DNA of 64,000 nucleotides from Escherichia phage WG01: sequence record NC_031928.1; one strand, written 5' to 3'. Below are positions 1,878 through 61,561 of the stretch, in pieces; position 1 is the first letter of the stretch, and every line of letters starts with the position of its first letter. The notes beneath the pieces are model-generated. The model was not told where the DNA came from and searched no databases. It was given only the letters and a program-made list of their open reading frames with translations. The translations under genes and the position numbers were made by a program.

Positions 1878-2471
1878 TTACTTAAGTGAATTAATGTAGT
1901 CTTCGATATCAGCAGAAGTCGTATCCATTCCAACTTGCGGGCCTTTAAACGTTTCTACGCGCATCAGGGTGTCTTCGATATCAATCTTGGTCAGTGCAGC
2001 AATTTCAACAACATCGTCGGCAGTAGCAATACCAAGGGCAGCCATATTACGAGTTTCACGGATGTACTCGAGCTTAACAGCCAGTTCCTGACGAGAGTCA
2101 TCAAGTTCCTTAACCTTCAGTTTAATTTCATTACGCATTTCGATATAATCATCGGCTTTCTTACGAAGCTGGGTAGCTGTACGACGATAAAGGAGGCCAA
2201 GTTTAGCATGTACCTGGACATCAGCGCCTTCGGCAATCAGTTTACGAATTTCACGTTCTTTAGAAGCAGCGAGCTGGTCTTTTTCATTAGCCAATGCACG
2301 AATACGTTTTTCTTCATTCACAGACTTAACATGAGCAGTCTGGAGTTCAGTGATTTTATCAATCAGAGTAGAAGCAGCTTTGGTGTATTGGTCTTCGATT
2401 GACAGGTTCTGAGCCATTGCGGTGCCCAGTTTAGAACGAATGAATTCAACGATTTTCTTTAAAGTGTTCAT
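1878..2471 (-). CDS. coiled-coil protein, possibly PspA/IM30-like
   Basis: ORF track 1878..2546; start moved to ATG at 2471 (MNTLKK...) with AAGGAAA RBS; long heptad-rich helical segments; PspA resemblance is by eye only. Confidence 0.45.
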
Positions 2472-2547
2472 AGTATTTCCTTCAGTTGGTTGATATTTTG
2501 TAATCCATGAGGACATTATACCCTGTCCTCTGAGGTTTGTAAACATT

Positions 2548-2946
2548 TTATTTCATTTTTGCGAGGCAGATTTCATTGGCTTCCCATTGAGCTTGCTTAA
2601 TAATAGCTTTGGATACAGGAGCCCTTTGGCCATAAGTTTTTGACGTTGAGAGAACAATACATTTGTTTGCTTCATTATGCCAGCCCCATGATTTTTCGCC
2701 ATGAGTACCTTTAACTACAGCTGACACCTCAACAGAGCAACCACCATCAGAAATCTTGGTTTCGACAACCCATTCATTTCTCTCAGCAGCTTCAATTTCT
2801 AATCTAGTTTTTTCTTCATACATCGCGGCCCAATCAGTTTTTGCCAAGTTGAAAGTAAGAGCTTTCTCTAATTCTTTGGCATATTTTTGTTGTTCAGGTG
2901 TTAATGAATTATACAACTCTTGCATTTCTTTATCTTCGATATTCAT
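2548..2946 (-). CDS. hypothetical protein
   Basis: 132-aa ORF with GAGGAGAA RBS; tightly packed with neighbours. Confidence 0.5.
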
Positions 2947-3004
2947 TATGTTCTCCTCAAATTATGGGCTCATAATATCTTAATCATGAGCCCATGTAAA
3001 CGTT

Positions 3005-3283
3005 TTATTTCATATTATTGAAATAATTTTCTGCATCAAAATCATTACCATGGTAAACTTTGGTAGACGATTTGGCGTAACCTTCAGCTGAGAACATATT
3101 AATCACAACTTTAATTGTATACCACTGTCCATCTTCATTACCCATTACTGCATAGGTTTCATACACCGGGTGTTCAGGACCGATAACCTTAATATCGTTA
3201 ACTGTGGCACCAAATTCTTCCGGAACACATTTCATAAAGAAATTAAACACTTCACCATAATTATCCATTTTACTCTCCTTCAC
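3005..3283 (-). CDS. hypothetical protein
   Basis: 92-aa ORF with AAGGAGAG RBS; early-promoter cassette immediately upstream. Confidence 0.5.
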   Translation of the reverse strand: MKESKMDNYGEVFNFFMKCVPEEFGATVNDIKVIGPEHPVYETYAVMGNEDGQWYTIKVVINMFSAEGYAKSSTKVYHGNDFDAENYFNNMK

Positions 3284-3303
3284 TCTGTTGTTTTGATAGG
3301 TCT

Positions 3304-3332
3304 ATAGTATCATGTTCTACGAAAGAGTAAAC
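3304..3332 (-). promoter_or_regulatory. early-type promoter cassette (GTTTAC -35, 17-nt spacer, TACTAT -10)
   Basis: Minus strand GTTTAC...TACTAT with conserved downstream AGACCTATCAAAAC; upstream of ORF 3005..3283. Confidence 0.5.
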
Positions 3333-3354
3333 ATCTTTTTTAAACCTTTTAGAA

Positions 3355-3384
3355 ACAAAAAAGGCCCAACCTTTCGGAAGGGCC
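3355..3384 (-). terminator. intrinsic terminator (repeated hairpin GGCCC..GGGCC plus U-run)
   Basis: Hairpin ggcccaacctttcggaagggcc followed on minus strand by TTTTTTGTTT; downstream of ORF 3390..3965. Confidence 0.55.
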
Positions 3385-3389
3385 TAGAA

Positions 3390-3965
3390 TCAGTTCTTGT
3401 AGAACCGGAATGGGTTTATGTGGAAGGCTAACATAGCCTTAGGGATTTTACGAGACAAAAGACTCTTAAGTTTCCAACCACAGTATACACGAAGGTAAAA
3501 GGTAATCCCACCTACTTTAAGATACGGAACTGAAGCAAAGACTCCCCATGCTTCGTCATTCCACATCCATAACCATCCATGATGAGCTTTATCAGGAGAA
3601 CCGGATTCAACGTCAGGATTACCACGATAATGGAATTCTGAGCTACAATCGCGTCCAAGTTTATGGTAAGCAAAGTTATAAGCTTTATTTCGCCATAGCC
3701 AAGCTACCCTCTGGAGATAAACACCGCCCGGCATTTTCCTGATTTTAGCCCAACGTTTAATATGACCTTTGTCACCGTCAATTGGATTATCGTATGTCAT
3801 CATCCAATCAAAGCCATAAGGCAATTTACCGGTCTTTTTATTATGGAAAGGAACTACAAAAGGCGCAAGGATAACGGCCAGAACCATAGAGATGAAATCC
3901 AGTGGAACCAACAGAACCCAACTCAAATATTTTAAAAGTTTCATATATTTCTCTAAGTTAACCAA
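3390..3965 (-). CDS. Trp-rich protein with N-terminal membrane anchor
   Basis: 191-aa ORF; N-terminal hydrophobic segment LSWVLLVPLDFISMVLAVILAPFVVPF; terminator hairpin downstream. Confidence 0.5.
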   Translation of the reverse strand: MVNLEKYMKLLKYLSWVLLVPLDFISMVLAVILAPFVVPFHNKKTGKLPYGFDWMMTYDNPIDGDKGHIKRWAKIRKMPGGVYLQRVAWLWRNKAYNFAYHKLGRDCSSEFHYRGNPDVESGSPDKAHHGWLWMWNDEAWGVFASVPYLKVGGITFYLRVYCGWKLKSLLSRKIPKAMLAFHINPFRFYKN

Positions 3966-3983
3966 AAAAGCCCCAGACGGGGC
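3964..3983 (-). terminator. intrinsic terminator
   Basis: Hairpin GCCCCGTCTGGGGC followed by TTTTTT on minus strand; downstream of ORF 3989..4453. Confidence 0.55.
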
Positions 3984-3988
3984 TTTCG

Positions 3989-4453
3989 TTATTTGATTTG
4001 TTTAGCAGACCAGATACGGTCTTTGATGATTTTCTGAATATCTTCAACATACTCTAAGTCGTGAGCATGTGGATTATCTTTGAAGCTATGTGCTCGTGCC
4101 AGTTTCTGGCCTTCTGTTTTGATTACTAAAAGCTCTTTAAGAATTGCTTCATACTTAGAAATAATTCCTTTGGCGATATTTTTTTCTTGAGCGGCTTTAG
4201 GGTCCGCTTTTGACGCAGGTGCTTTACCTGTAGCTTTCTGGAACAATTCACCTGATGCAGCTAGGCTTTTAAAAACTCGGCTAACAGTATTGGCATTAGT
4301 AAAACCTTCGGCTTTAAAATCTTTAATAAAACGGAAACGTTCTTCATCAGAGGCGTCTTTGTAAGAATATTTACCTGCTTGAATTGCTGCAATCGCAGCG
4401 GCTTTTACATCTGAACTAGATTGTTCAGTCAAAAATTCATTGTAAGTTTTCAT
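3989..4453 (-). CDS. internal head protein-like (capsid-targeting-sequence-bearing) protein
   Basis: N-terminus [10 protein letters not shown] matches the T4 internal-protein leader MKTYQEFIAE with an L-x-E cleavage site; late promoter and terminator flank it. Confidence 0.6.
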   Translation of the reverse strand: MKTYNEFLTEQSSSDVKAAAIAAIQAGKYSYKDASDEERFRFIKDFKAEGFTNANTVSRVFKSLAASGELFQKATGKAPASKADPKAAQEKNIAKGIISKYEAILKELLVIKTEGQKLARAHSFKDNPHAHDLEYVEDIQKIIKDRIWSAKQIK

Positions 4454-4479
4454 ATTATTTCCTAAGTTAGTTTACTACA

Positions 4480-4487
4480 TATTTATA
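4480..4487 (-). promoter_or_regulatory. late promoter for the internal-protein-like gene 3989..4453
   Basis: Reverse complement of TATAAATA 27 nt upstream of the minus-strand ATG at 4453. Confidence 0.55.
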
Positions 4488-4488
4488 C

Positions 4489-4516
4489 AAAAAAAGCCCA
4501 ACCTTTCGGAAGGGCC
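4489..4516 (-). terminator. intrinsic terminator (second copy of the repeated hairpin)
   Basis: gcccaacctttcggaagggc followed by a 7-nt U-run on minus strand; between the RNA cluster and the late promoter at 4480. Confidence 0.55.
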
Positions 4517-4564
4517 TTTAACCTAGGGTAACCTTGTCGGGGTTCCACCTGCTAGGCAAGTGTT

Positions 4565-4725
4565 TGTACGAAACGCCGGGATTCGAACCCGGTTATTAAG
4601 TAGTTGACGCCACTCAATATTTTTAAAAGGCCATATCTCGACCATATCCGAACGTTCCGTCAAAAACGCTACTCGGCTTACGGCAAAGATATTTCCTCGA
4701 ATCGATAATTCGGTGCGCCGTTTCT
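4565..4725 (-). ncRNA. candidate tRNA-like small stable RNA (compare T4 species 1/2 RNAs)
   Basis: Minus-strand T-arm CCGGGTTCGAATCCCGG (plus 4576-4592) followed by a 7-nt acceptor-like strand CGTTTCG; a partially complementary strand lies about 150 nt upstream; no ORF over this span; boundaries approximate. Confidence 0.25.
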
Positions 4726-4898
4726 GCTGTGATGTAAGGGGACGTTAACAGATCGTAAAGATTTGTTAATGCCAGTCCTTACTCAGGGAACATCAGTCCG
4801 ACGACTTACCGGTAGCGACCCGGTTTCTTGTTTGTTGCGCCGGTGAATGCTGGTAATCAGTCTTCATACGACGGCTTGACTATATAATAGTCTTCATT

Positions 4899-4973
4899 TG
4901 GTATCCCGCCCTGGGATCGAACCAGGACCGCAAACTTAGAAGGATCGTATGCTATCCATTACACCAGCGGGAC
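4899..4973 (-). tRNA. tRNA-Arg (anticodon TCT)
   Basis: 75-nt cloverleaf on minus strand: 7-bp acceptor stem GTCCCGC/GCGGGAT, T-arm CCTGG-TTCGATC-CCAGG, anticodon loop CT-TCT-AA, encoded CCA. Confidence 0.8.
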
Positions 4974-4978
4974 GTAGT

Positions 4979-5055
4979 TGGTGACCCAGACCAGATTTGA
5001 ACTGGTAACCTTTCCCTTATGAGGGGACTGCTGCTAACCATTGAGCTACAGGGCC
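4979..5055 (-). tRNA. tRNA with anticodon CAT (Met, or Ile if lysidine-modified)
   Basis: Minus strand: acceptor GGCCCTG with 6 of 7 pairs, T-arm ACCAG-TTCAAAT-CTGGT, anticodon loop CT-CAT-AA, encoded CCA; D-arm irregular. Confidence 0.65.
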
Positions 5056-5060
5056 TTAAA

Positions 5061-5333
5061 TCAAACTACAAATCCAGCAGGAGCATTATCATCTTTAGCC
5101 ATGTGCTGAATTGTATGATAAGTCATTTCTTCAGGAGCAACCAGATAAGCCGCAGCGTTAACTAGTGGAATTATTTTTGGTTTAGCGAATGTGCTATCGG
5201 CAATTGCCATAAAGGGCTCGCCGTCGGTCTCAACTTCACCAAATTGACATTCATACGAAATAGAACAACGTTTGGTAGTGGTTGTCTTGGTTGCCGGGTC
5301 ATAAAAAGCTAATTTTAATACTAACATAAACAC
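5061..5333 (-). CDS. hypothetical protein
   Basis: 90-aa ORF directly upstream of the tRNAs on the same strand; GAGGT RBS. Confidence 0.4.
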   Translation of the reverse strand: MFMLVLKLAFYDPATKTTTTKRCSISYECQFGEVETDGEPFMAIADSTFAKPKIIPLVNAAAYLVAPEEMTYHTIQHMAKDDNAPAGFVV

Positions 5334-5444
5334 CTCAAATAAAATTAAGTAAAGTAAGTTTGATTAATAGACCTTGTCTATTATGAAAGGTTCTTTGAGG
5401 GAAGAACCTTTGGTAATAGAGGGTTACTTAATAATGTTAGAGTA

Positions 5445-5469
5445 ATAATAACACATTACTCTTAAAGCA
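5445..5469 (-). promoter_or_regulatory. candidate MotA-dependent middle promoter upstream of ORF 5061..5333 and the tRNAs
   Basis: Minus strand ATGCTTTAA (MotA-box-like TGCTTTA) followed 12 nt later by TATTAT. Confidence 0.3.
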
Positions 5470-5506
5470 TATTACTATTTTTAGGAATAGTCTGGTCAAA
5501 TTTGAT

Positions 5507-5797
5507 TCATTGTGGCCACATATTAATGTAATCAAGTTTAATAGAAGCAATCTTCAAAGGATTTTTAAAGATGTCGTATTCGACCAACCCGTTTTCAGTT
5601 GCGGTGTAGAAAGTAAAGTTAACAGAATTATAACGGCGACCATTAACTTTTAGTTTAACGTCGCTTGAACTACGACCAATATTAACCTGTTGGACATCAA
5701 GCACAGCACCTTTGCCAAAGTTGCGAATCAGTAGCTCTGCTGCAACCTGGTCTGAATTATATCCATTCTCTGGATTAGTAACCTTAACGTATAACAT
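5507..5797 (-). CDS. hypothetical protein
   Basis: 96-aa ORF abutting the upstream gene. Confidence 0.45.
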   Translation of the reverse strand: MLYVKVTNPENGYNSDQVAAELLIRNFGKGAVLDVQQVNIGRSSSDVKLKVNGRRYNSVNFTFYTATENGLVEYDIFKNPLKIASIKLDYINMWPQ

Positions 5798-6199
5798 TTA
5801 ACCCTCGTCTACAATAGTATGGGTATTGGCATTAACAATCTGCCACCAGTCAAAACGATCTGAGCCGTAAAGAGGATTATTCTCGTTTTCTTTAACAATT
5901 TCACGTAGTTCGTCTTCAGAAAATGCTTTAGCGATTAAATCGGTATAGCCACCACGTGGATAATAGTTATCACCAGCGAACAAAAGGAAATTTACCTTTC
6001 CAGAAGGAACATATGCTTCCTTAGGATACTTGTTTCCTGCATGGTCTACCACTTCAATATAACGGTAAGGAATATCAGTACTTTCAACCCATTGCCAAGC
6101 CGCAGCAGGGGATTCAAAAGCATCAACACCTAAACGGTTATCTTCATCTTTAGACGGATTATTTTCATAATCCGCATATACATAATATTCAACGTTCAT
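5798..6199 (-). CDS. hypothetical protein
   Basis: 133-aa ORF; start overlaps the stop of 6199..6384. Confidence 0.5.
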   Translation of the reverse strand: MNVEYYVYADYENNPSKDEDNRLGVDAFESPAAAWQWVESTDIPYRYIEVVDHAGNKYPKEAYVPSGKVNFLLFAGDNYYPRGGYTDLIAKAFSEDELREIVKENENNPLYGSDRFDWWQIVNANTHTIVDEG

Positions 6200-6384
6200 T
6201 ATTCACCTTTAGAGATTTTATCCATAACGATAGCGATTAAGCCGATTAGAAATGCTACTACCAATGAGATAGAATTTTCTGTTGTTGTCAGTAGTCCACA
6301 AATGAATCCTACAAACATCGAAAAGCTAAAAGCCATTGAAGCAATTACTACAGCAACATTACGAATCAGTTCAGCGCGTTTCAT
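6199..6384 (-). CDS. small membrane protein
   Basis: 61-aa ORF with two hydrophobic helices; GAGGAG RBS; early-type promoter upstream. Confidence 0.45.
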   Translation of the reverse strand: MKRAELIRNVAVVIASMAFSFSMFVGFICGLLTTTENSISLVVAFLIGLIAIVMDKISKGE

Positions 6385-6412
6385 TTTATTCTCCTCAGTA
6401 GTTGATAGGGTA

Positions 6413-6442
6413 ATAGTATCACTACCCTATCTAAAAGTAAAC
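6413..6442 (-). promoter_or_regulatory. early-type promoter cassette
   Basis: GTTTAC, 18 nt, TACTAT on minus strand upstream of ORF 6199..6384. Confidence 0.45.
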
Positions 6443-6453
6443 GGTTTTATAAA

Positions 6454-6762
6454 CTATTTTATTCCGCGTGATGCAATCGTATTCTGCCGTTTAACGCCAG
6501 TTTGTTTAAAGTTATGATTGTCGAGTTGATCGGTACGAGCAACTCCGAATGATGATTTAATCTTAGCTTTAGATCCTTTAGTTATAGAAATAAACATCTC
6601 GGGAGCCCCTTTCTTAAAGTCCGAAGCAATTACTTCAACACCGTTCTTAGCAAGTGACCTCAGAATTGCTTCCACATACTCATCATCAAGACCTGCTTGA
6701 GTATGAATAACGAATGTCTTTGGTGCAGCCGCTTCATTGATAAATTCTTGGTATGATTTCAT
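6454..6762 (-). CDS. internal head protein-like (CTS-bearing) protein
   Basis: N-terminus MKSYQEFINEA matches the T4 internal-protein leader; 102 aa. Confidence 0.6.
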   Translation of the reverse strand: MKSYQEFINEAAAPKTFVIHTQAGLDDEYVEAILRSLAKNGVEVIASDFKKGAPEMFISITKGSKAKIKSSFGVARTDQLDNHNFKQTGVKRQNTIASRGIK

Positions 6763-6792
6763 TTTATTTTCCTAATTAATTTTGATGAGATA

Positions 6793-6822
6793 ATAGTACC
6801 ACAACCCTATTTAAAAGTAAAC
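6793..6822 (-). promoter_or_regulatory. early-type promoter cassette
   Basis: GTTTAC, 18 nt, TACTAT on minus strand upstream of internal-protein-like ORF 6454..6762. Confidence 0.45.
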
Positions 6823-7095
6823 TCATTTTAAATAAATTGCATATTTTTTATAACCCGCTGTCTCATGACGAAGACCCTTATCATTAGCAAAACGCTCAAT
6901 GTTGTTAATTTGATTCTGGTCAAGTTCAGAGATGTCAAACACGAAAAAGTTACGTTTGTTGCCTAAAGTTACGTGATTAGTCAAATCGATGTTATAGAGA
7001 TGATTTATATTATCAATCATGGTCTTAACAGATTTGTTAATTTTTACTTCTTCATTAAGAATAGATTCAGCGATAAATTCTTGGTATGATTTCAT
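6823..7095 (-). CDS. internal head protein-like (CTS-bearing) protein
   Basis: N-terminus MKSYQEFIAES; 90 aa. Confidence 0.6.
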   Translation of the reverse strand: MKSYQEFIAESILNEEVKINKSVKTMIDNINHLYNIDLTNHVTLGNKRNFFVFDISELDQNQINNIERFANDKGLRHETAGYKKYAIYLK

Positions 7096-7096
7096 T

Positions 7097-7318
7097 TTAT
7101 TCTACGCCTGCGGCTTTCAAAAGTTTTTTAAGATTGGCTATGCCGCCAGCAGAAAACGTGACCTTGCCACCTTTTTCATTGATAGAGCCAGTCAATTTAG
7201 CAAGCTTATCACTAGGGACTTTTTTAAAATCAGCCAGTATGCCATCAAAGGTTTTTGTAACAACCGGCAGTTGGTCATGTTTTTTGGCTTCTGTAATAAA
7301 TTCTTGATAAGCTTTCAT
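7097..7318 (-). CDS. internal head protein-like (CTS-bearing) protein
   Basis: N-terminus MKAYQEFITEA; 73 aa; early promoter cassette upstream. Confidence 0.6.
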   Translation of the reverse strand: MKAYQEFITEAKKHDQLPVVTKTFDGILADFKKVPSDKLAKLTGSINEKGGKVTFSAGGIANLKKLLKAAGVE

Positions 7319-7356
7319 TTTTGATTTCCGTTTGGTTAGTTTGTTTTGATAGGTCT

Positions 7357-7385
7357 ATAGTATCATGCCTATAGACCTTGTAAAC
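7357..7385 (-). promoter_or_regulatory. early-type promoter cassette
   Basis: GTTTAC, 17 nt, TACTAT plus conserved AGACCTATCAAAAC; upstream of internal-protein-like ORF 7097..7318. Confidence 0.5.
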
Positions 7386-7396
7386 AACTTTTTAAA

Positions 7397-8295
<899 letters not shown>

Positions 8296-41144: not shown

Positions 41145-41175
41145 TAACATAAGTTATTAATTCTTAAAATTATTT

Positions 41176-41205
41176 GGGAGACTTCGGTCTCCCATTCTTG
41201 TTTCT
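41176..41205 (+). terminator. intrinsic terminator after gene 23
   Basis: GGGAGACTTCGGTCTCCC hairpin followed by a T-rich tract. Confidence 0.7.
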
Positions 41206-41208
41206 GTA

Positions 41209-41490
41209 TTATGCAATCTTAACTCGGCGGTTGATGATATCACGGAAGTCAATACGATTTTCTTGGATTTTCAGCCAGTTACCAGATTTGTCTTTGGTAT
41301 GGGTAGAGTATTCACCGTTCCACCAGAAGTCGGTAGCATAAGCCATGGCTTCGTATTTCTTAACTAAGGCATTCACTGCATTACCATTAGGATTGTTACC
41401 GAATTTTTCTACCAGAGCTTTGATGTCTTTATCAAGAGCGGAAAGAGTAGTACGAATAAAGTTTAACTTGTTCATTTTTAATCTCCTCAT
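41209..41490 (-). CDS. hypothetical small protein in the 23-24 intergenic slot
   Basis: 93-aa ORF on opposite strand with early-promoter cassette and AGGAGA RBS; T4 has segD at this position. Confidence 0.45.
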   Translation of the reverse strand: MRRLKMNKLNFIRTTLSALDKDIKALVEKFGNNPNGNAVNALVKKYEAMAYATDFWWNGEYSTHTKDKSGNWLKIQENRIDFRDIINRRVKIA

Positions 41491-41504
41491 GTTTTGATAG
41501 GTCT

Positions 41505-41534
41505 ATAGTAACATGTGAGAATCTTGCTGTAAAC
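41505..41534 (-). promoter_or_regulatory. early-type promoter cassette
   Basis: GTTTAC, 18 nt, TACTAT plus AGACCTATCAAAAC; upstream of ORF 41209..41490, back-to-back with the gene 24 late promoter. Confidence 0.5.
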
Positions 41535-41540
41535 AACTTT

Positions 41541-41548
41541 TATAAATA
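41541..41548 (+). promoter_or_regulatory. late promoter for gene 24
   Basis: Exact TATAAATA 29 nt upstream of the gene 24 ATG. Confidence 0.65.
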
Positions 41549-41576
41549 AACATATACCCTCAATAAGGAAAGCGCA

Positions 41577-42860
41577 ATGGCAAAGATTAACGAATTACTG
41601 CGCGAGTCAACAACTACTTCCAGCAACTCATTGGGTCGCCCTAATCTTGTTGCTTTGACCCGTGCTACAACCAAATTGATTTACCGTGATATTATCGCCG
41701 AACAACGTACTAGCCAGCCTATTGCTGCACTGTATGGTGTCAAATATCTTACCCCTGATAATGAATTTAGTTTCCAGACAGGTGCCTCTTATGGTGGTGA
41801 AGTTGGTTCTAAAGACCGTGAAACTATCCCAGAACTCACAGATAAGGCCCAGGCGATTGCTCAGGGTGAATATTTCAAGTACCAGAATGTGGTTTATAAG
41901 GCTCTTAAAGCAAGCCCACTCGCGTCCACTAGCGCCCCAGAATTGGCTGATGCTCTTCAAGAAGGTTTAGTGTCATTAACATGTCGTCTGGTTCCTGATG
42001 CTGCCCATACCACTAAATTTGAAGCGAGTGATGTAGAAATCTCTGATGCTGTATTCCAGGTTAATAAATGGAATGCTCCGGTTAAGACCCGTAAATTGAA
42101 GACGGCTTTGACTGTAGAATTAGCGCAGGATATGGAATCAAATGGCTTTGACGCGCCGGCGTTCTTAGAAGACCTCTTGGCTACAGTAATGGCAGATGAA
42201 ATTAATAAAGACGTTCTGCAATCTCTAATAACCGTATCCAAACGTTATAAAGTTACTGGTGTATCTGATAACGGCATCATCGATTTGTCTTATGACAGTG
42301 CTCCTGAATCTGCACGTAAACTTTATGAACTCGTTTGTGAGATGAATTCTGAAATCCAGAAAACTACTTCTTATTCTGGCACGTTTGTTGTGGCTTCAAG
42401 TCGTGTGGCTGCAATGCTTGCAGGTTCTGGCTGGTTAAAACATAAACCCGAAGATAATAATTGGCTTCCGGAAACTGCATACGGATATTTGTTGAATGGT
42501 CTGCCTCTGTTTTGTGACGTTAACAGTCCATTAGATTATGTTACCGTTGGTGTTAAAGAGAATTACGGCGGTAATGAAGTTGTCGGTTCTATTTTCTACG
42601 CTCCCTATACCGAAGGCTTAGATTTAGATGACCAAGAACACGTCGGTGCTTATAAGGTTATTGTTGACCCGGATTCATTACAACCTTCTATTTCTCTGAT
42701 GGTTCGTTATGCACTATCAGCTAACCCGTACACCGTGGCTAAAGACGATAAAGAAGCTCGTGTTATCGATGCAACCAATATGGATTTAATGGCTGGACAG
42801 AGCAATATGTCTTATCTGGTTGGCGTTAAACTTCCGGCAATTATTTACGAGGCTGATTAA
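41577..42860 (+). CDS. 24: capsid vertex protein gp24
   Basis: 427 aa; N-terminus MAKINELLRESTTT is T4 gp24-like; late promoter upstream. Confidence 0.9.
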   Translation: MAKINELLRESTTTSSNSLGRPNLVALTRATTKLIYRDIIAEQRTSQPIAALYGVKYLTPDNEFSFQTGASYGGEVGSKDRETIPELTDKAQAIAQGEYFKYQNVVYKALKASPLASTSAPELADALQEGLVSLTCRLVPDAAHTTKFEASDVEISDAVFQVNKWNAPVKTRKLKTALTVELAQDMESNGFDAPAFLEDLLATVMADEINKDVLQSLITVSKRYKVTGVSDNGIIDLSYDSAPESARKLYELVCEMNSEIQKTTSYSGTFVVASSRVAAMLAGSGWLKHKPEDNNWLPETAYGYLLNGLPLFCDVNSPLDYVTVGVKENYGGNEVVGSIFYAPYTEGLDLDDQEHVGAYKVIVDPDSLQPSISLMVRYALSANPYTVAKDDKEARVIDATNMDLMAGQSNMSYLVGVKLPAIIYEAD

Positions 42861-45288: not shown

Positions 45289-45537
45289 TTACTTTGAACT
45301 AGAACGCGCTTTGCGCCGAACCTTGTTGTTCAATCTTTTACGATAAACAACCTTTTCTTTCGCTTTAAATTTGGCCTTGGCTTGTTCTACATCAACCCAT
45401 GCTTTGGCCATGTCCTTAGCGGTCCCGCCCATTTTTTTAGCAATTTCTATAAAATTCAACCCAGATTCGTGTAAAAAATGTACTTTAACCTTATCCATAA
45501 CAATTCTCTCGTTGAGTTGGTAAACCCATCTTAACAC
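45289..45537 (-). CDS. small basic protein with helix-turn-helix-like segment
   Basis: 82-aa ORF (start may be the internal ATG at 45498); segment SGLNFIEIAKKMGGTAKDMAKAW; Lys/Arg-rich C-terminus. Confidence 0.4.
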   Translation of the reverse strand: MLRWVYQLNERIVMDKVKVHFLHESGLNFIEIAKKMGGTAKDMAKAWVDVEQAKAKFKAKEKVVYRKRLNNKVRRKARSSSK

Positions 45538-45580
45538 AGAATTTTTAACTTGTAAACAGGAATTTTGTACTTTAATGCAA

Positions 45581-47186: not shown

Positions 47187-48683
47187 ATGCAAATTCAAGT
47201 ACATTTTGATAATTTTAGTCATGTCCGTATTGAATGCGATGAATCTACATTCTACGAACTCAGAGACTATTTTAGCTTTGAAGCTGATGGATATAAATTC
47301 AACCCTAAATTTCGTTATGGTCAATGGGACGGACGTATTCGCCTTCTGGATTACAACCGTAAACTTCCTTATGGATTGGTCCCTCAAATTAAAAAGTTCG
47401 CTGAACAATTTGAATACTCTCTGTGGATTGACCCACGTATTCTTGAACAGGAAGATATTTCTCGTGAAGATTTTGATTCATGGGTGGCTTCTCAAGAAAT
47501 TTATTCAGGGTCTACCAAGATTGAGCCTCATTGGTATCAGAATGAAGCCGTATACAACGGCCTGACAAAACGTCGCGCAATTCTGAATTTACCTACATCT
47601 GCAGGTAAATCATTAATCCAGGCACTCCTGAGTCGATATTACGTTGAGAACTATGAAGGTAAAATCCTCATCTTAGTTCCTACTACTGCACTTGTCGACC
47701 AGATGATTAACGACTTCATCGATTATCGTCTGTTCCCTAAAGCCGCAATGCTTGGTATTCGTTCAGGTACTGCTCGTGATTCCGATGCAATGATTTATGT
47801 TTCAACTTATCAAACCGCTATCAAGCAACCTAAAGAATGGTTTGCTCAGTTCGGTATGTTTATGAACGACGAATGCCATTTGGCTACAGGTAAATCTATT
47901 TCTACTATCATCGAAGGCCTAACCAACTGTATGTTTAAATTCGGTTTGTCGGGTTCTTTAAAAGATGGTAAAGCTAATTTAATGCAATATATGGGTTTGT
48001 TTGGTGATGTGTTTAAGCCAGTATCCACCTCCCAGTTAATGGAAGAAGGACAGGTTACTGACCTTAAAATCAACAGTATTTTCCTTCGATACCCAGACGA
48101 ATTCACGGTTAAAATGAAAGGTAAAGATTACCAATCAGAAATCAAGGTCATTACTAAGGCTACTCGTCGTAATAAATGGGTTGCTAATTTAGCTGTTAAA
48201 CTCGCTAAGAAAGAAGAGAACGTATTCCTGATGTTTAAAAACATCGAACACGGTAAAACTCTTTTTGAAATGGTTAAAGAGCAACATAAAGAAGTTTATT
48301 ACGTATCAGGTGAAGTTAATACCGAAACGCGTAATGCTCTGAAAGTAATGGCGGAAAATGGTAAGGGTATTATTGTTGTGGCAAGTTATGGTGTGTTCTC
48401 TACTGGTATTTCCGTTAAGAACCTTCACCACGTTGTATTTGCCCATCCAGTAAAATCTAAAATCATTGTACTCCAGACAATTGGTCGTGTACTCCGTAAA
48501 CATGCCTCTAAATCAACAGCACAGGTGTGGGATATCATCGACGACATGGGTGTTAAGCCTAAATCAGCTACGGCTAAAAAGAAATATGTTCATTTGAACT
48601 ACGCCCTCAAACACGCTTTAGAACGTATTCAACGTTATGCTGATGAGAAATTTAATTACGTAATGAAACAGGTGGATTTATGA
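47187..48683 (+). CDS. uvsW: UvsW recombination/repair helicase
   Basis: 498 aa; Walker A TSAGKS and DECH box in NDECH; late promoter upstream. Confidence 0.85.
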   Translation: MQIQVHFDNFSHVRIECDESTFYELRDYFSFEADGYKFNPKFRYGQWDGRIRLLDYNRKLPYGLVPQIKKFAEQFEYSLWIDPRILEQEDISREDFDSWVASQEIYSGSTKIEPHWYQNEAVYNGLTKRRAILNLPTSAGKSLIQALLSRYYVENYEGKILILVPTTALVDQMINDFIDYRLFPKAAMLGIRSGTARDSDAMIYVSTYQTAIKQPKEWFAQFGMFMNDECHLATGKSISTIIEGLTNCMFKFGLSGSLKDGKANLMQYMGLFGDVFKPVSTSQLMEEGQVTDLKINSIFLRYPDEFTVKMKGKDYQSEIKVITKATRRNKWVANLAVKLAKKEENVFLMFKNIEHGKTLFEMVKEQHKEVYYVSGEVNTETRNALKVMAENGKGIIVVASYGVFSTGISVKNLHHVVFAHPVKSKIIVLQTIGRVLRKHASKSTAQVWDIIDDMGVKPKSATAKKKYVHLNYALKHALERIQRYADEKFNYVMKQVDL

Positions 48684-56996: not shown

Positions 56997-57287
56997 TTAT
57001 TTACGGAACGAAATGAAACCTGCTGTGGTCATTAGTGGTTGCTTTTTAACAAACACCGTAACCGAAATAGGAGCTTCGGATTCGAGTTGTCCTGTCACTA
57101 CACCGTTAAAAATGTTTTCGGTTTGTTCTGGATAAGAAAAATTCTCAACAGGTCGGATATCAAACTGTTTGTCTTCACCGAAAACTCGACGTAATTCATT
57201 ACCCACTGCACTGTCAAACTCTTCAGAAGCAGGGATAACGTTTTCAACTACCAGTTCTTGACCATTAAAACGGAATGCAGATTTCAT
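56997..57287 (-). CDS. hypothetical small protein downstream of the alt array
   Basis: 96-aa ORF with GAGGAG RBS; early-promoter cassette upstream. Confidence 0.45.
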   Translation of the reverse strand: MKSAFRFNGQELVVENVIPASEEFDSAVGNELRRVFGEDKQFDIRPVENFSYPEQTENIFNGVVTGQLESEAPISVTVFVKKQPLMTTAGFISFRK

Positions 57288-57315: not shown

Positions 57316-57345
57316 ATAGTACCACATCCTTGTGGTGTTGTAAAC
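57316..57345 (-). promoter_or_regulatory. early-type promoter cassette
   Basis: GTTTAC, 18 nt, TACTAT on minus strand upstream of ORF 56997..57287. Confidence 0.45.
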
Positions 57346-59468
57346 TACATTTTGAATTTATTTGATAAAGAAGAGATATCCAAAGACGCTGCAAGGATTT
57401 CCATAGCCTCGTTGCTTTCAGAAACAGATTCATTAACCAAGAATTGACTGAACCCATCCATCAGGCGAACTTCACCAGTTTCCATCAAATGGTCACCATC
57501 GTAAACAGATTCGCTGAGCTCTGAAGGAGGTGTTACGGTAGCTTCCATAAGGTATTTGTGAGATACTCTATCATTCATGGCAAAAGCCGCTACTTTATCA
57601 ACCTTCAACAATAATCCACGCGGAAGGATAATTTCTGCTTCTTCGGCATATTCTGTAAGGTCACCAGGAGCGATAACTTTAACTGCTTCAGCACCTCGAA
57701 TAACCATACCAATTTCAGCAATTCTATCTGCAGGACCTTCAGGTGCAATTGGATTACCAAACTCGTCTTCTTCCCATTCTACCTCTTCGTCATCGACTTC
57801 ACCTACATCAGATGAACTACCACTAGCCAATTTAAACAACTCATCAGCGGAGGATAAAGAACCTTCACCGCCAACAAAAACGGCTTGGTTGTCGAGGGCC
57901 ATATAATTTTTACCAAATTCACCAAAGATGTTAGGTTTTAGTGAGGCTGACACAAAGTTCTTAAAGTAAAATGTTTTGTTATCGATATTATGGCGCAGAA
58001 TTTTGTATGGCAAATCCTGACCACGATACAAAATAGTACCCTTAGGAAGTTTAATACCCTTAGTAAATGCCGAGTCTAAATCCTTAATCAATTTAATAGC
58101 CGTTGTATTGTTTTCGGATTCAGGTTTACCTAAAAGGAATAAGTTCATAGGAGCATATTCAGCCGCGCAATATTCAATAATAGCATTGCTTTCGTCTTTG
58201 GTTAGGTCCTTAGGTTTAATGAGCTCGCCTGAATAAGCATATGCATCACTAATAGAATCGTTAACCAGTTTATAAACGGCTTCCATAGCGAAAGCAATTC
58301 TAGATGCTTTCTCTGAAGGGGAACCCTTAAAACGGGTACTCAGGTTATTAACAATTTTCTTAATAATATCCAGACTATTGGTTGTATTGATTTGCGAAAG
58401 GCCACTTAAAAGTCTATCGACTTCTGTATTAAAAAATGCCATATTATTAGAGTAAATTTCAAACCCTTGTTTATCTCTATTAGCATAATTTAGTTTAAAT
58501 TTACTATCAGTCATTAAAGCGTGTGTGAGAGCAATAGTGTATCTAAAGTTGGCAAGGTCCTCGCTCTTAGATTTAAACTGAGAAGCCTGACGCATTTTAG
58601 TAATGGCACCTTTTTTAAAGTTCTGACTAATCTGTTCAATACCTTCGTTCTCAGGGCCTTCAGCCGTGTGAACCGGTACAGAAGCTTCAAACTCGTTATA
58701 AACCTGCAATTCTTTAGGGGACAAAGTTTCAGGCTCAGCAGTAGAATACTGCGCCGCCGCTGCCATACGACGCGAAATCTTAGTACGAGTAATGACAGCC
58801 TTATCAGTACGTTTCTCTTCAACTTGTGCAATAGATGCCGCTACGGCTTCGACCTTACTTACAGCCTGGCCGGTTTTCTTAGAAACATACACTTCGCCAA
58901 CTTTAGACTCAACTTTAGTATAAAGATCGGCATTAATTTCAGGCATACCCTTGATATCTTCAATATTAGCACCACGACGTACTAAAAGAACGTAGGTATG
59001 TTTTCCGCTGAATTGGAACATGTCGTCAACAACTTTAAACTTACCACCGGTACGAGCCATAGCCAAGCGAGCTAATACGCGCTGAACGGTAGGACCTTTA
59101 CCTTTCATTTTCTTGGTAGGGAACCGGAAAAGAACTGCATCCATTTTAAGTTTGTTTACTTGTTCGTATACAGTATCAAAAATGGTATTCAGCGTACCAA
59201 GTGGGTCAGAACCTAACCCACCTTTCAACTCGGCTGGGCTACCCTTAGCAGACAAACTCATCAAAATAACATGAACATATTTGTCGCCCGGCTTAACCAT
59301 TTTAATAGCGTCTCCTTGAGACGCATAAGATACCATACGAGCAACCAGATTATCATTACCTGGTGCTTGGATAGAGAAAATCTGTGGAATACCGGAACCC
59401 GGTTTAAGATTTGTTACTGGATAGTTTTTAGCGGAATCACTATCAAAAACCTCATTTAAATTTTCCAT
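57345..59468 (-). CDS. alt: Alt-like ADP-ribosyltransferase, paralog A
   Basis: 707 aa (T4 Alt 682 aa); conserved N-terminal module; C-terminal ART motifs ILYRGQ, FVSASL, EEAEIILPRG. Confidence 0.8.
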   Translation of the reverse strand: MENLNEVFDSDSAKNYPVTNLKPGSGIPQIFSIQAPGNDNLVARMVSYASQGDAIKMVKPGDKYVHVILMSLSAKGSPAELKGGLGSDPLGTLNTIFDTVYEQVNKLKMDAVLFRFPTKKMKGKGPTVQRVLARLAMARTGGKFKVVDDMFQFSGKHTYVLLVRRGANIEDIKGMPEINADLYTKVESKVGEVYVSKKTGQAVSKVEAVAASIAQVEEKRTDKAVITRTKISRRMAAAAQYSTAEPETLSPKELQVYNEFEASVPVHTAEGPENEGIEQISQNFKKGAITKMRQASQFKSKSEDLANFRYTIALTHALMTDSKFKLNYANRDKQGFEIYSNNMAFFNTEVDRLLSGLSQINTTNSLDIIKKIVNNLSTRFKGSPSEKASRIAFAMEAVYKLVNDSISDAYAYSGELIKPKDLTKDESNAIIEYCAAEYAPMNLFLLGKPESENNTTAIKLIKDLDSAFTKGIKLPKGTILYRGQDLPYKILRHNIDNKTFYFKNFVSASLKPNIFGEFGKNYMALDNQAVFVGGEGSLSSADELFKLASGSSSDVGEVDDEEVEWEEDEFGNPIAPEGPADRIAEIGMVIRGAEAVKVIAPGDLTEYAEEAEIILPRGLLLKVDKVAAFAMNDRVSHKYLMEATVTPPSELSESVYDGDHLMETGEVRLMDGFSQFLVNESVSESNEAMEILAASLDISSLSNKFKM

Positions 59469-59471
59469 TAT

Positions 59472-61553
59472 TTACCCTTGGATGAATTTTTCTGGGATGT
59501 CATAGAGGTCTATGCATGAAGCCAAAAGAGGCAGTACATCAAACCGTGTAGATTTAACAAATGAATCAAAAGATAAGGGGCTTTCGGAAGTATCGAAGTC
59601 ATCTTGATATACGACCAACTCGCCGGTTTCCATTAGTACATCACCATCATATACCACAGATTCTTGAAGCTCATCTGTTGTCATAACTTCAGCTTGAATG
59701 AGTTTTGTATTACTAGATGTTGTTCCATCATTATTAGAAGCATCTGTTATTTTATTAACTTTGACCATTAATCCACGCGGTAGAATAACTTCAGCTTCAG
59801 TTGCTATTCCGAGATTTCCTGGATATACGACATTAACTTTATGGGCCCCATCAATAGCCCATCCTATTTGAACTTTAACATAATCAGGATTTTCTTTATA
59901 TGCTCTTATTTCATTAGGATTAATAGTTATTCCTTCTTCATTTTTATCAACTGTCAATTCGTTGCGAACTTCCGGTTCTAAAAGACCAATACCAGCGTGC
60001 GTAACACCAAAACGTCCGAAAATTATAGGAGTTAAAGAAGTAGATACAAAATTTCTAAAATAAAACACTTTATTTTTAACTAGTGCTTCGTATATAGGAG
60101 CAGTCATACTCTGGGCACGATAAACTGTAATGCCTTCCGGTATACGGTCACCATTTTCAAAAGCTGAATCTAAATTATTTACAGCGGATTCGATATCTTT
60201 TTCGCTCATAACCTCATAGTTCTGAGGATTATAACGTCCTAAAAGAAGATTATTTATGTCTGTATATCCTGAACCACAATATTCTCTGATACCACGCTTT
60301 TGTGATGGAGTATATTTAGAACCTTCACGAGCAATAGTAATATCAACCATAATACCACCACCCACACCAGCAAAACTATACACGCGTTTTTTAATGAACT
60401 TAGTCTTGGCTGCTTTCCACTTGGCCTCTGTCAATTCGTTCCAAAGGTCATCAGGTTGGCCTTTACGAGTTCTGTTATGGATAGCCAGCCACTCGCCTTT
60501 ATATTCTTCGAAAATGGTATTAATAGCAGAGGCATATTTTTCTAGAGCTTTAACAGATGTCAAAGGTTCGTTTTTTATTGCTGTAAGAATTTTCTCTTTA
60601 ATTTTCTCTTGGATTTCACCAATACCGTGAAGTGGGAACAATTTATAGTCGTAATGCAATTCTTCAGCAGTGCCTTCAGCTACTATATTAGCAACCTTAT
60701 TTTTAGCCGCAGGAGAATTGTTATTAGTAACCATTTCCTGAGCCTCAGGGATTAATGGAACTGTTGCCGGTTTATTAAAATCCGCTGCAGTAGCTTCATA
60801 TTTCTTAAACAATTCACTTTCATTACGATAAGATTCCAATGATTGGCTTGCTGCAATGGCGCGCCTAGAAATCTTAGTCTTGGTTATAACCATTTTATCA
60901 GTGCGACGTTCTTCAACCTTAGCAATACTACCGGCGATAGCAGTTTCTTTAGTAACCTGCACGCCTTCTTTTTTAGAAATATAAACTTCACCGACATCAG
61001 AATCTACCTTAGTATACAATTCAGCATTAATTCCAGGCATACCTTTGATATCTTCTATATCAGCTTGTTTACGAACTACCAGGATGTAAGTATGTTTACC
61101 GGTAAATTGGTACATAGCCGGAACTACTTTAAAACGTCCACCTGTTTTCTGTGCTACCAAACGTTGGATAATCCGTTGAACGATAGGGCCTTGACCTTTC
61201 ATTTTCTTAGTAGGGAAACGGAACATCACGGCATCCATACGAAGCTTTTTAACCTGTTCGAATACTACGTCGAAAATGGTATTAATAGCATCAATAGGAG
61301 TAGGGCCTAAGCCACCTTTAAGTTCTGCTGGAGTACCTTTAGCTGAAAGGCTCATAAGGATAACGTGGGCATATTTATCACCCATCTTAACCTGTTTAAT
61401 AGCATCGCCTTCAGAAGCATAGGATACCATACGTGCTACTAACTGAGACTCCGCGTCTCCAATCTTCCAAATCTGAGGTACTTTAAGTTTTGGGTTCAAG
61501 TTCACAACAGGCAGTGTACCTTCGGACTCGAACACTTCATTTAATTGGGTCAT
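59472..61553 (-). CDS. Alt-like ADP-ribosyltransferase, paralog B
   Basis: 693 aa; N-terminal 240 aa closely similar to paralog A; ART motifs ITVYRAQ, FVSTSL, EAEVILPRG; central region divergent. Confidence 0.8.
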   Translation of the reverse strand: MTQLNEVFESEGTLPVVNLNPKLKVPQIWKIGDAESQLVARMVSYASEGDAIKQVKMGDKYAHVILMSLSAKGTPAELKGGLGPTPIDAINTIFDVVFEQVKKLRMDAVMFRFPTKKMKGQGPIVQRIIQRLVAQKTGGRFKVVPAMYQFTGKHTYILVVRKQADIEDIKGMPGINAELYTKVDSDVGEVYISKKEGVQVTKETAIAGSIAKVEERRTDKMVITKTKISRRAIAASQSLESYRNESELFKKYEATAADFNKPATVPLIPEAQEMVTNNNSPAAKNKVANIVAEGTAEELHYDYKLFPLHGIGEIQEKIKEKILTAIKNEPLTSVKALEKYASAINTIFEEYKGEWLAIHNRTRKGQPDDLWNELTEAKWKAAKTKFIKKRVYSFAGVGGGIMVDITIAREGSKYTPSQKRGIREYCGSGYTDINNLLLGRYNPQNYEVMSEKDIESAVNNLDSAFENGDRIPEGITVYRAQSMTAPIYEALVKNKVFYFRNFVSTSLTPIIFGRFGVTHAGIGLLEPEVRNELTVDKNEEGITINPNEIRAYKENPDYVKVQIGWAIDGAHKVNVVYPGNLGIATEAEVILPRGLMVKVNKITDASNNDGTTSSNTKLIQAEVMTTDELQESVVYDGDVLMETGELVVYQDDFDTSESPLSFDSFVKSTRFDVLPLLASCIDLYDIPEKFIQG

Positions 61554-61561
61554 AATCTATC

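Follow-up and report, generated by a model that had tools for sequence, protein, structure and literature searches.

What are the near-identical, promoter-like sequences that precede several small genes of Escherichia phage WG01, and do they take part in the exchange of these genes between phages? The DNA considered here, hereafter the window, is a stretch of 64,000 nucleotides of WG01 (sequence record NC_031928.1) that by its sequence belongs to a Dhakavirus, a T-even phage resembling JS98 and QL01. A sequence-only reading of the window had noted six minus-strand sites in which the hexamer GTTTAC is followed after a spacer of 17-18 nt by TACTAT, each just upstream of a small open reading frame (ORF), and had suggested that they fit the promoter-early stem-loop (PeSL) cassettes of T4-type phages, which are proposed to mediate the shuffling of accessory genes. 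The analysis described here adds three further sites, and all nine are probably σ70-dependent Dhakavirus early promoters which, together with leader-coding repeats and terminators, serve as joints of cassette exchange.

Predicted early promoters of the T4 type

The motif GTTTAC-N17/18-TACTAT occurs exactly six times on the two strands of the window, in every case on the minus strand, whereas dinucleotide-preserving shuffles contain 0.03 matches on average and never more than one. A crude gene map places 94% of the window in ORFs and leaves approximately 6% as non-coding DNA; all six matches are confined to this non-coding fraction, so that the motif is far from equally frequent in coding regions, and each lies 14-38 nt upstream of a minus-strand start codon. 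The six sites, referred to as P3304, P6413, P6793, P7357, P41505 and P57316 (Table 1), stand as they had been listed in the sequence-only reading, with the same coordinates, on the minus strand, between genes and close to the starts of small ORFs. What had been missed is a TGn motif directly 5' of TACTAT at all six sites, which makes an extended -10 element (TGA, TGG or TGT), and the 20-25 nt upstream of the sites are A/T-rich. The spacing of the -35 and -10 elements is of the σ70 type and can also be read as TTTACA-16/17-TACTAT, and by sequence the sites qualify as early promoters of the T4 type. The predicted transcription start, 7 nt from the -10 hexamer, would be an A at six of six sites (7350, 6786, 6406, 3297, 41498 and 57309).

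Three of the sites (3304, 7357 and 41505) had also been said to share an extended sequence. This is borne out by the 25-mer CATGATACTATAGACCTATCAAAAC, which is found as exact copies at 3290-3314 and 7343-7367, where the shared identity reaches 27 nt, and with a single mismatch at 41491-41515. Its interpretation as a conserved initial transcribed sequence that marks cassettes did not survive, as it equals the family consensus of the discriminator and start region (nnnCCTATCAA around +1) and belongs to the general early-promoter consensus of T-even phages, T4 included. Recent gene conversion as the origin of the three near-identical 25-mers was ruled out, the same sequences being present at orthologous positions in six of six relatives.

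When 50 kb of early QL01 DNA and a 13-kb T4 locus were scanned with a relaxed pattern, many further sites of this type appeared. In the consensus derived from 30 promoters (T4 included), AT-rich upstream DNA is followed by GTTTACat, by a spacer with aTGa at its end, by TAcTAT and by nnnCCTATCAA; TACTAT is the most frequent -10 variant (16 of 30 promoters). The region upstream of T4 denV reads GTTTAC-17-TGATACTATAGACCTATCAAC, that is GTTTAC-17-TGATACTAT-AGACCTATCAAC. A position matrix trained only on the promoters of QL01 1-50 kb and of the T4 locus, and applied to the 64 kb, gave nine minus-strand sites, and none on the plus strand, at or above a cut-off of 16 bits. The six sites rank first with 37-51 bits and are followed by 2972-3001, 2515-2544 and 45528-45557, which have -10 hexamers other than TACTAT. 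All nine are located 14-45 nt 5' of an ATG with a Shine-Dalgarno sequence. The T4 promoters upstream of ipI, trna.4, e.8, e.7 and denV are orthologous or near-identical counterparts.

According to published work, T4 early promoters combine UP, -35, TGn and -10 elements with other conserved stretches (PMC2988021), in which GTTTAC occupies -36 to -31 and an A-rich stretch -40 to -44, and the early promoters of RB69, RB49 and 44RR are C-rich at -3 to -1 (PMC1524935). The architecture of the WG01 sites matches this published description, and the assignment of the six sites and the three additional ones to T4-type early promoters is strongly supported at the level of sequence. The promoters are made up of an AT-rich, UP-like region, the GTTTAC -35 element, a gap of 17/18 nt, TGn, the TACTAT -10 element and a C-rich discriminator, with a predicted start at the A of CCTATCAA, and it is proposed that unmodified host RNA polymerase would initiate short early transcripts there directly after infection. 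Genes transcribed in this way would be e.8, trna.4 with those that follow it, the internal head protein genes, alt.-3 and the antisense ORF of 88 aa.

Recombination junctions and mosaic promoters

Six of the nine promoters lie in the hyperplastic region of the e, tRNA and internal protein (IP) genes, and alignment of positions 2400-8200 with six Dhakavirus relatives places several boundaries of gene content within promoters. The gene of the 102-aa internal head protein (IP102) is missing in QL01, IME281 and 04086, with junctions at 6817, just past the -35 element of P6793, and at 6421-6425, in the TGn/-10 part of P6413. P6793 and P6413 share 85% identity over 41 nt, and as the two junctions fall within these direct-repeat promoters the pattern is that expected of a crossover between them. 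The trna.4 promoter of QL01 is identical to the Ip7 promoter of MX01 through CTATCAAAACAA and diverges afterwards. Within about 100 nt, P6793 combines sequence of three kinds: its upstream flank is like MX01 and QL01 (the MX01 Ip7 promoter), its -35 element and spacer are like P6413, and its downstream part, TATCTCATCAAAATTAATTAGGAAAATAAAATG, is like the T4 ipI promoter. This three-way combination explains why the stem-loop of P6793 is broken.

The same is seen elsewhere in the window. Alignments to phages that carry a different alt paralogue end at 57348, the edge of the -35 element of P57316, the upstream region of this promoter being the 3' end of alt. One alignment, to phage TH15, which is without the 88-aa ORF, ends at 41528 inside the -35 element of P41505. 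The junctions in or beside the cassettes are located at 6817, 6442, 6421-6425, 7405, 3344-3358, 41528 and 57348.

Other junctions involve different short repeats. MX01 and 04086 are without the gene of the 73-aa internal protein (IP73), and the junctions of this difference (7296 and 7098) lie inside leader-coding repeats, and a 69-aa ORF is missing in QL01, MX01 and 04086, with junctions at the 6-nt microhomology TAAAAT. The 31-nt terminator repeats at 3355-3385 and 4487-4517 flank a two-gene module that differs in content and order in JS98 and IME281. The IP locus as a whole (5900-8100) is covered to at least 80% in three of 754 matching records, with a maximum of 81% among 50,697 phage genomes, and its array of four leader-bearing genes (69, 73, 90 and 102 aa) is complete in no other record among 50,697 phage records. 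The array equals the union of the IME281 (69-74-90) and MX01 (90-102) arrays.

These alignments support a role for conserved promoter cassettes, at the IP locus, as one kind of joint at which modules are exchanged. The promoters are stretches of 40-60 bp that are conserved between otherwise unrelated genes; according to the proposed mechanism they could be used as short homologies, and phage recombination would add, delete or swap gene cassettes at the promoters, at the leader-coding repeats of about 30 nt and at the terminator repeats.

Stem-loops within the promoters

Among the six sites, only P7357 and P6413 have a strong stem-loop, that of P57316 is weak and not significant, and P3304 has an upstream intrinsic terminator (3355-3385) instead of an internal hairpin. 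In the strong hairpins the spacer supplies the 5' arm, and the 3' arm extends from within the -10 element through the discriminator. Only read-through RNA or extruded DNA could form them. The sequences that follow the hairpins at 7357, 6413 and 2972 are ATCAAAAC, ATCAACTA and AATTTGAG, respectively, and contain no U-run. Hairpins resembling intrinsic terminators are restricted to 3355-3385, which is detected by RNAfold and missed by a simple terminator scan because of its interior loop, and to the region of 45580. An Rfam search of 3200-7700 at a permissive threshold returned two tRNAs only, so that the conserved sequences do not belong to any known RNA family.

Across 23 promoters of the window and QL01 the mean folding z is -1.7, with z < -2 in eight. 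The pairing of the two promoter halves was assessed by an alignment-free permutation, in which left and right halves were swapped among 29 GenBank-derived cassettes from seven genera, de-replicated at 85%. Native halves fold with a mean of -7.9 kcal/mol compared with -5.6 +/- 0.46 for re-paired halves, the native mean being reached by none of 5000 permutations (z = -5). Cassettes from Tequatrovirus, Mosigvirus, Gelderlandvirus, Tegunavirus and Jiaodavirus display the same hairpin geometry with different but matching arms, the co-varying pairs being GGTCT/AGACC, GGGCT/AGCCC, GGGTT/AACCC, GGGTA/TACCC and GAGGTA/TACCTC. Roughly one in three T-even early promoters therefore has a genuine stem-loop with co-adapted arms. 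In these promoters the spacer is complementary to the 3' half of the -10 element and the discriminator, so that a hairpin could arise in read-through RNA or extruded DNA, which corresponds to the published PeSL arrangement. An IUPAC scan of IMG/VR for orthologues of the trna.4 promoter with free stem positions recovered a single contig.

In a few promoters, namely QL01 47311 and 7855, the one upstream of T4 denV and one of phage fHe-Yen9-01, the spacer pairs instead with the Shine-Dalgarno sequence of the downstream gene. This complementarity is perfect over 9-11 bp in QL01 (47282-47339 and 7825-7883) and T4 (2337-2395 of the examined locus). With such complementarity a read-through RNA would hide its ribosome-binding site, and an RNA initiated at the promoter would not.

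As the arms co-vary across several T-even genera, and some reach the Shine-Dalgarno sequence instead, it may tentatively be suggested, although it is not probable, that the spacer/-10/discriminator hairpin is a functional element under selection. It could act as a read-through insulator that silences or processes read-through RNA, whereby each cassette would be expressed from its own promoter only, or a phage protein could recognise it as a DNA structure and thereby target cassette exchange in an integron-like manner.

Early promoters as proposed joints of cassette exchange

The proposal that the WG01 sites are PeSL cassettes holds in part. They are early-promoter modules with the PeSL consensus of T-even phages, they lie in a hyperplastic region and they have recombination junctions in or at them; the strong stem-loop is limited to two of six. 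Gene shuffling linked to the cassettes is likewise visible in the relatives through the junctions in and at promoters, but junctions in the leader repeats of the IP locus are about as frequent as those in or beside promoters (four of each), and the promoter is not the only linker in this locus.

Several points weigh against the reading of the sites as early promoters and joints of exchange. About half of the IP-locus junctions lie in leader repeats or in the TAAAAT microhomology and not in promoters, so that generic short-homology recombination fits as well as a promoter-specific mechanism. Promoters, leaders and terminators make up 14% of 2400-8200 and contain 12 of its 20 distinct junctions (binomial 2e-6); this enrichment counts in favour of joints at these elements, but was obtained with feature classes picked after seeing the data and with six relatives only. 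Folding of the six sites found no internal stem-loop at P6793, P41505 or P3304, and as the internal hairpins are without a U-run, their sequence gives no sign of the terminator action ascribed to PeSLs. A literature search for T4 start-site maps covering the T4 orthologues of these promoters yielded nothing usable. The sequence anatomy, the family consensus, the pairing of the arms and the places of the junctions are directly visible, and promoter activity, start site, hairpin action and whether recombination is targeted or merely homology-driven are inferred. From these data the promoters do not emerge as special targets of recombination; leader repeats and small microhomologies do equally well, which agrees with a homology-driven T4 recombination system working on whatever short linker is conserved.

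It is possible, although somewhat doubtful, that the sites are plain early promoters whose likeness reflects selection for RNA polymerase binding, and that the genes were shuffled by ordinary homologous or microhomology recombination in which promoters have no special part. This would agree with the extended sequence being a family consensus kept at orthologous positions from T4 to Dhakavirus, with junctions that are equally frequent in leader repeats and at TAAAAT, and with the short homology that suffices for T4-type recombination (Arbiol 2010, discussion). It is less easily reconciled with junctions that fall precisely in promoter cores (6817, 6421-6425, 6442, 41528 and 57348) and with P6793, which is chimeric inside the promoter, and polymerase recognition alone leaves the co-varying spacer/-10 hairpins unexplained. 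Early promoters that also serve, with leader repeats and terminators, as joints of exchange remain the favoured explanation.

The palindromic sites could further be primarily terminators or attenuators of upstream transcripts, with the promoter-like hexamers being secondary. With a PeSL stem-loop, lacZ expression reportedly fell to about the same extent as with rrnB T1 (Arbiol 2010), and the GenBank record of phage SA35RD labels a homologous hairpin as a rho-independent terminator, but the hairpins at 7357, 6413 and 2972 are not followed by a U-run, which makes this very unlikely. The SA35RD hairpin is homologous to that of P7357 and was labelled with TransTermHP/WebGeSTer; it is located at 158-196 of the SA35RD segment, overlaps a perfect early promoter and is itself without a U-run. 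Extremely improbable, and ruled out on sequence, are MotA-dependent middle promoters, with which the sites share only a -10-like hexamer with TGn that is also found in half of T4 middle promoters (PMC2988021), and chance matches, as all sites have GTTTAC at -35, none contains the TGCTT of the MotA box, (a/t)(a/t)TGCTT(t/c)A centred at -30 (PMC2988021, PMC1524935), and 0.03 matches are expected by chance.

Genes behind the promoters and their surroundings

Positions 3000-8000 match 793 phage records, the best of which are Dhakavirus genomes (QL01, MX01, JS98, IME281, E33 and others) with 91-98% identity. The matches are mosaic, with a coverage of at least 80% in only four of the 793 records. 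In annotated relatives the gene order is e.6, e.8, tRNAs, trna.2-4, internal head proteins, 57B, 57A, 1, 3, 2, 4, and the order 57B, IP genes, trna.4-2, tRNAs, rnaC-D and e.8-e.6 is that of T4. The small ORFs had been called orphans, a label that has to be dropped, as all ten that were tested belong to PHROG families (e.8, trna.4, internal head proteins, alt.-3 and similar), two of them also matching Pfam DUFs. The coordinates of promoters, hairpins, terminators and genes are collected in Table 1.

Table 1 Promoters, hairpins, terminators and genes located in the WG01 window; promoters, starts and gene functions are predictions
Feature	Position	Strand	Description
P7357	7357..7385	-	GTTTAC-17-TACTAT, TGA extended -10; 5' of the 73-aa, then 90-aa internal protein; best matrix score, 50.6 bits
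P7357 hairpin arms	7369-7378 / 7351-7360	-	10 bp, AGGTCTATAG/CTATAGACCT, z -5.5
P6793	6793..6822	-	5' of 102-aa internal head protein; chimeric; no stem-loop (z +1.2)
P6413	6413..6442	-	5' of trna.4; orthologue of T4 trna.4 promoter
P6413 hairpin arms	6420-6431 / 6404-6415	-	12 bp, z -3.0
P3304	3304..3332	-	5' of e.8; no internal hairpin
P41505	41505..41534	-	Early promoter of antisense 88-aa ORF between g23 and g24; no hairpin
P57316	57316..57345	-	5' of alt.-3; -35 overlaps alt stop codon; weak 6-bp spacer hairpin
P2972 (additional)	2972..3001	-	-10 TATTAT; 13-bp spacer/-10 hairpin, z -6.0; orthologue of T4 promoter upstream of e.7
P2515 (additional)	2515..2544	-	-10 TATAAT; upstream of e.6; relatives annotate e.6 start 3' of this promoter
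P45528 (additional)	45528..45557	-	-10 TAAGAT; intrinsic terminator upstream
Intrinsic terminator	3355..3385	-	GGCCC..GGGCC, then T6; 22 nt upstream of P3304 -35; one copy of 31-nt repeat
Second terminator-repeat copy	4487..4517	-	97% identity to 3355-3385; downstream of rnaC/rnaD homologue
Late-promoter motif TATAAATA	4480-4487	-	Between terminator copy 4487-4517 and 154-aa leader-bearing ORF
g24 late promoter TATAAATA	41541-41548	+	Back to back with P41505; overlapped by P41505 UP region
e.8 homologue	3005..3268	-	87 aa; P3304
trna.4 homologue	6199..6384	-	61 aa; P6413
Leader-bearing ORF	7397..7606	-	69 aa; IP-type leader; absent from QL01, MX01, 04086
Internal virion protein, Ip8-like	7097..7318	-	73 aa; leader MKAYQEFITE
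Internal head protein, Ip9-like	6823..7095	-	90 aa; leader MKSYQEFIAE; without own promoter
Internal head protein, Ip7-like	6454..6762	-	102 aa; leader MKSYQEFINE; absent from QL01, IME281, 04086
Leader-bearing ORF	3989..4453	-	154 aa; IP-type leader; outside the two classical IP loci
alt.-3	56997-57287	-	DUF5498; P57316
88-aa ORF	41209-41475	-	PHROG 6003; antisense between g23 and g24; terminator after ORF

Five ORFs (7397-7606, 7097-7318, 6823-7095, 6454-6762 and 3989-4453) start with MK(T/S/A)Y(Q/N)EF(I/L)xE, the leader type of T4 IPII and IPIII (MKTYQEFIAE). Past this leader their bodies are mutually unrelated by BLASTP, and PHROG internal head or virion protein families match three of the five. 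In T4 the MKTYQEFIAE-type leader is a capsid-targeting sequence that is cut off by the prohead protease, and T4 uses its internal proteins as cargo against host defence; for this reason, host range may be influenced by the variable array of four genes. More than 30 IP variants have reportedly been described (Comeau 2007).

The 154-aa leader-bearing ORF is preceded by the late-promoter motif TATAAATA and not by an early promoter, and is flanked by both copies of the 31-nt terminator repeat. It is absent from JS98 and IME281, which have an unrelated leader-bearing ORF of 205 aa at a neighbouring position. Phage 04086 contains at 4475-4730 a partial duplication of window positions 4338-4537, which comprise the terminator, the late promoter and the 5' portion of the 154-aa ORF, resulting in a shortened 61-aa copy of the ORF with an ambiguous base. 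Next to tRNA-Arg, on its downstream side, the non-coding minus-strand segment 4500-4834 shares 91% identity with the rnaC/rnaD region of T4 (species 1 and 2 small stable RNA); it terminates in the T-arm-like GGGTTCGAATCCCGG, and no Rfam family matched it. Between trna.2 and another ORF of 88 aa there is a 180-nt gap (5328-5506) with a 19-bp inverted repeat (5377-5395 and 5402-5420, 89%) and a second AT-rich hairpin, where JS98 and IME281 have orf138 inserted with junctions at 5472/5480.

Behind P41505, the second ATG (41475) has the Shine-Dalgarno sequence GAGGAG, and the PHROG match spans residues 6-93 of the longer reading; judged from the sequence, this ATG is most likely the start, giving 88 aa. 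Positions 41150-41580 form a stand-alone antisense module (early promoter, 88-aa ORF and terminator) between late genes, the ORF being absent in T4-type phages. Upstream of alt.-3, three large tandem ORFs (707, 693 and 631 aa) occupy 57345-63457 on the minus strand, and relatives give the one adjoining alt.-3 the annotation Alt RNA polymerase ADP-ribosyltransferase.

Comparison with known systems

The WG01 sites share with T4 early promoters the same architecture, near-identical sequence, the same strand and the same gene neighbourhood, and the promoters of T4 ipI and trna.4 are positional orthologues of P6793 and P6413. They differ only in the genome (Dhakavirus, 40% GC) and the particular downstream genes. 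As orthologues of described T4 early promoters they are of small discovery value.

In RB49 and phi1 the PeSL has been defined as an early promoter with an AT-rich region and a stem-loop, followed by a Shine-Dalgarno sequence and ATG, the stem-loop being placed between -35 and -10, overlapping either box, or just upstream or downstream (Arbiol 2010). The idea was extended to T4 and PST in a study of PST/T4 and nt-1/KVP40, with the T4/PST-type consensus TTTACW-N17-TAYWAT (Comeau 2014), which fits all six WG01 sites. Like PeSLs, the WG01 elements combine an AT-rich early promoter, at some sites with a stem-loop or with a terminator just upstream, with a Shine-Dalgarno sequence and ATG, and they are found in hyperplastic regions with small accessory genes and with indels between close relatives alongside. 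Unlike PeSLs, stems of the WG01 type are AT-richer and without the GGGG/CCCC of RB49, and only about a third of the promoters have one. The elements of T-even IP loci were in fact considered analogues and not homologues of RB49 PeSLs (Arbiol 2010).

The IP locus of WG01 resembles those of other T-even phages in its place between 57B and trna.4, in genes that are unrelated beyond the MKTYQEFIAE-type leader, in early promoters with weak AT-rich stem-loops and in gene content that varies between close relatives. It is different in having four tandem leader genes, along with the 154-aa leader ORF outside the two classical loci. As far as summarised in Arbiol (2010), polymorphic T-even IP loci with early promoters as joints of modular exchange were described by Repoila (1994). 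A single gene with its own promoter and terminator between conserved genes, such as the antisense 88-aa ORF between g23 and g24, is also reminiscent of the morons of lambdoid phages (Hendrix 2000).

The kind of element, the locus and the proposed evolutionary role are already known from the literature (Repoila 1994; Arbiol 2010; Comeau 2014). In practical terms, nine predicted early promoters and five leader-bearing genes, probable injected internal proteins, can now be annotated in WG01, and the locus offers clean sequence-level cases of recombination joints inside promoters. Mildly new in comparison with the earlier work are the cleanly chimeric promoter P6793, a three-way combination, and a quantitative test by permutation across genera, by which the two halves of the promoter are co-adapted to pair.

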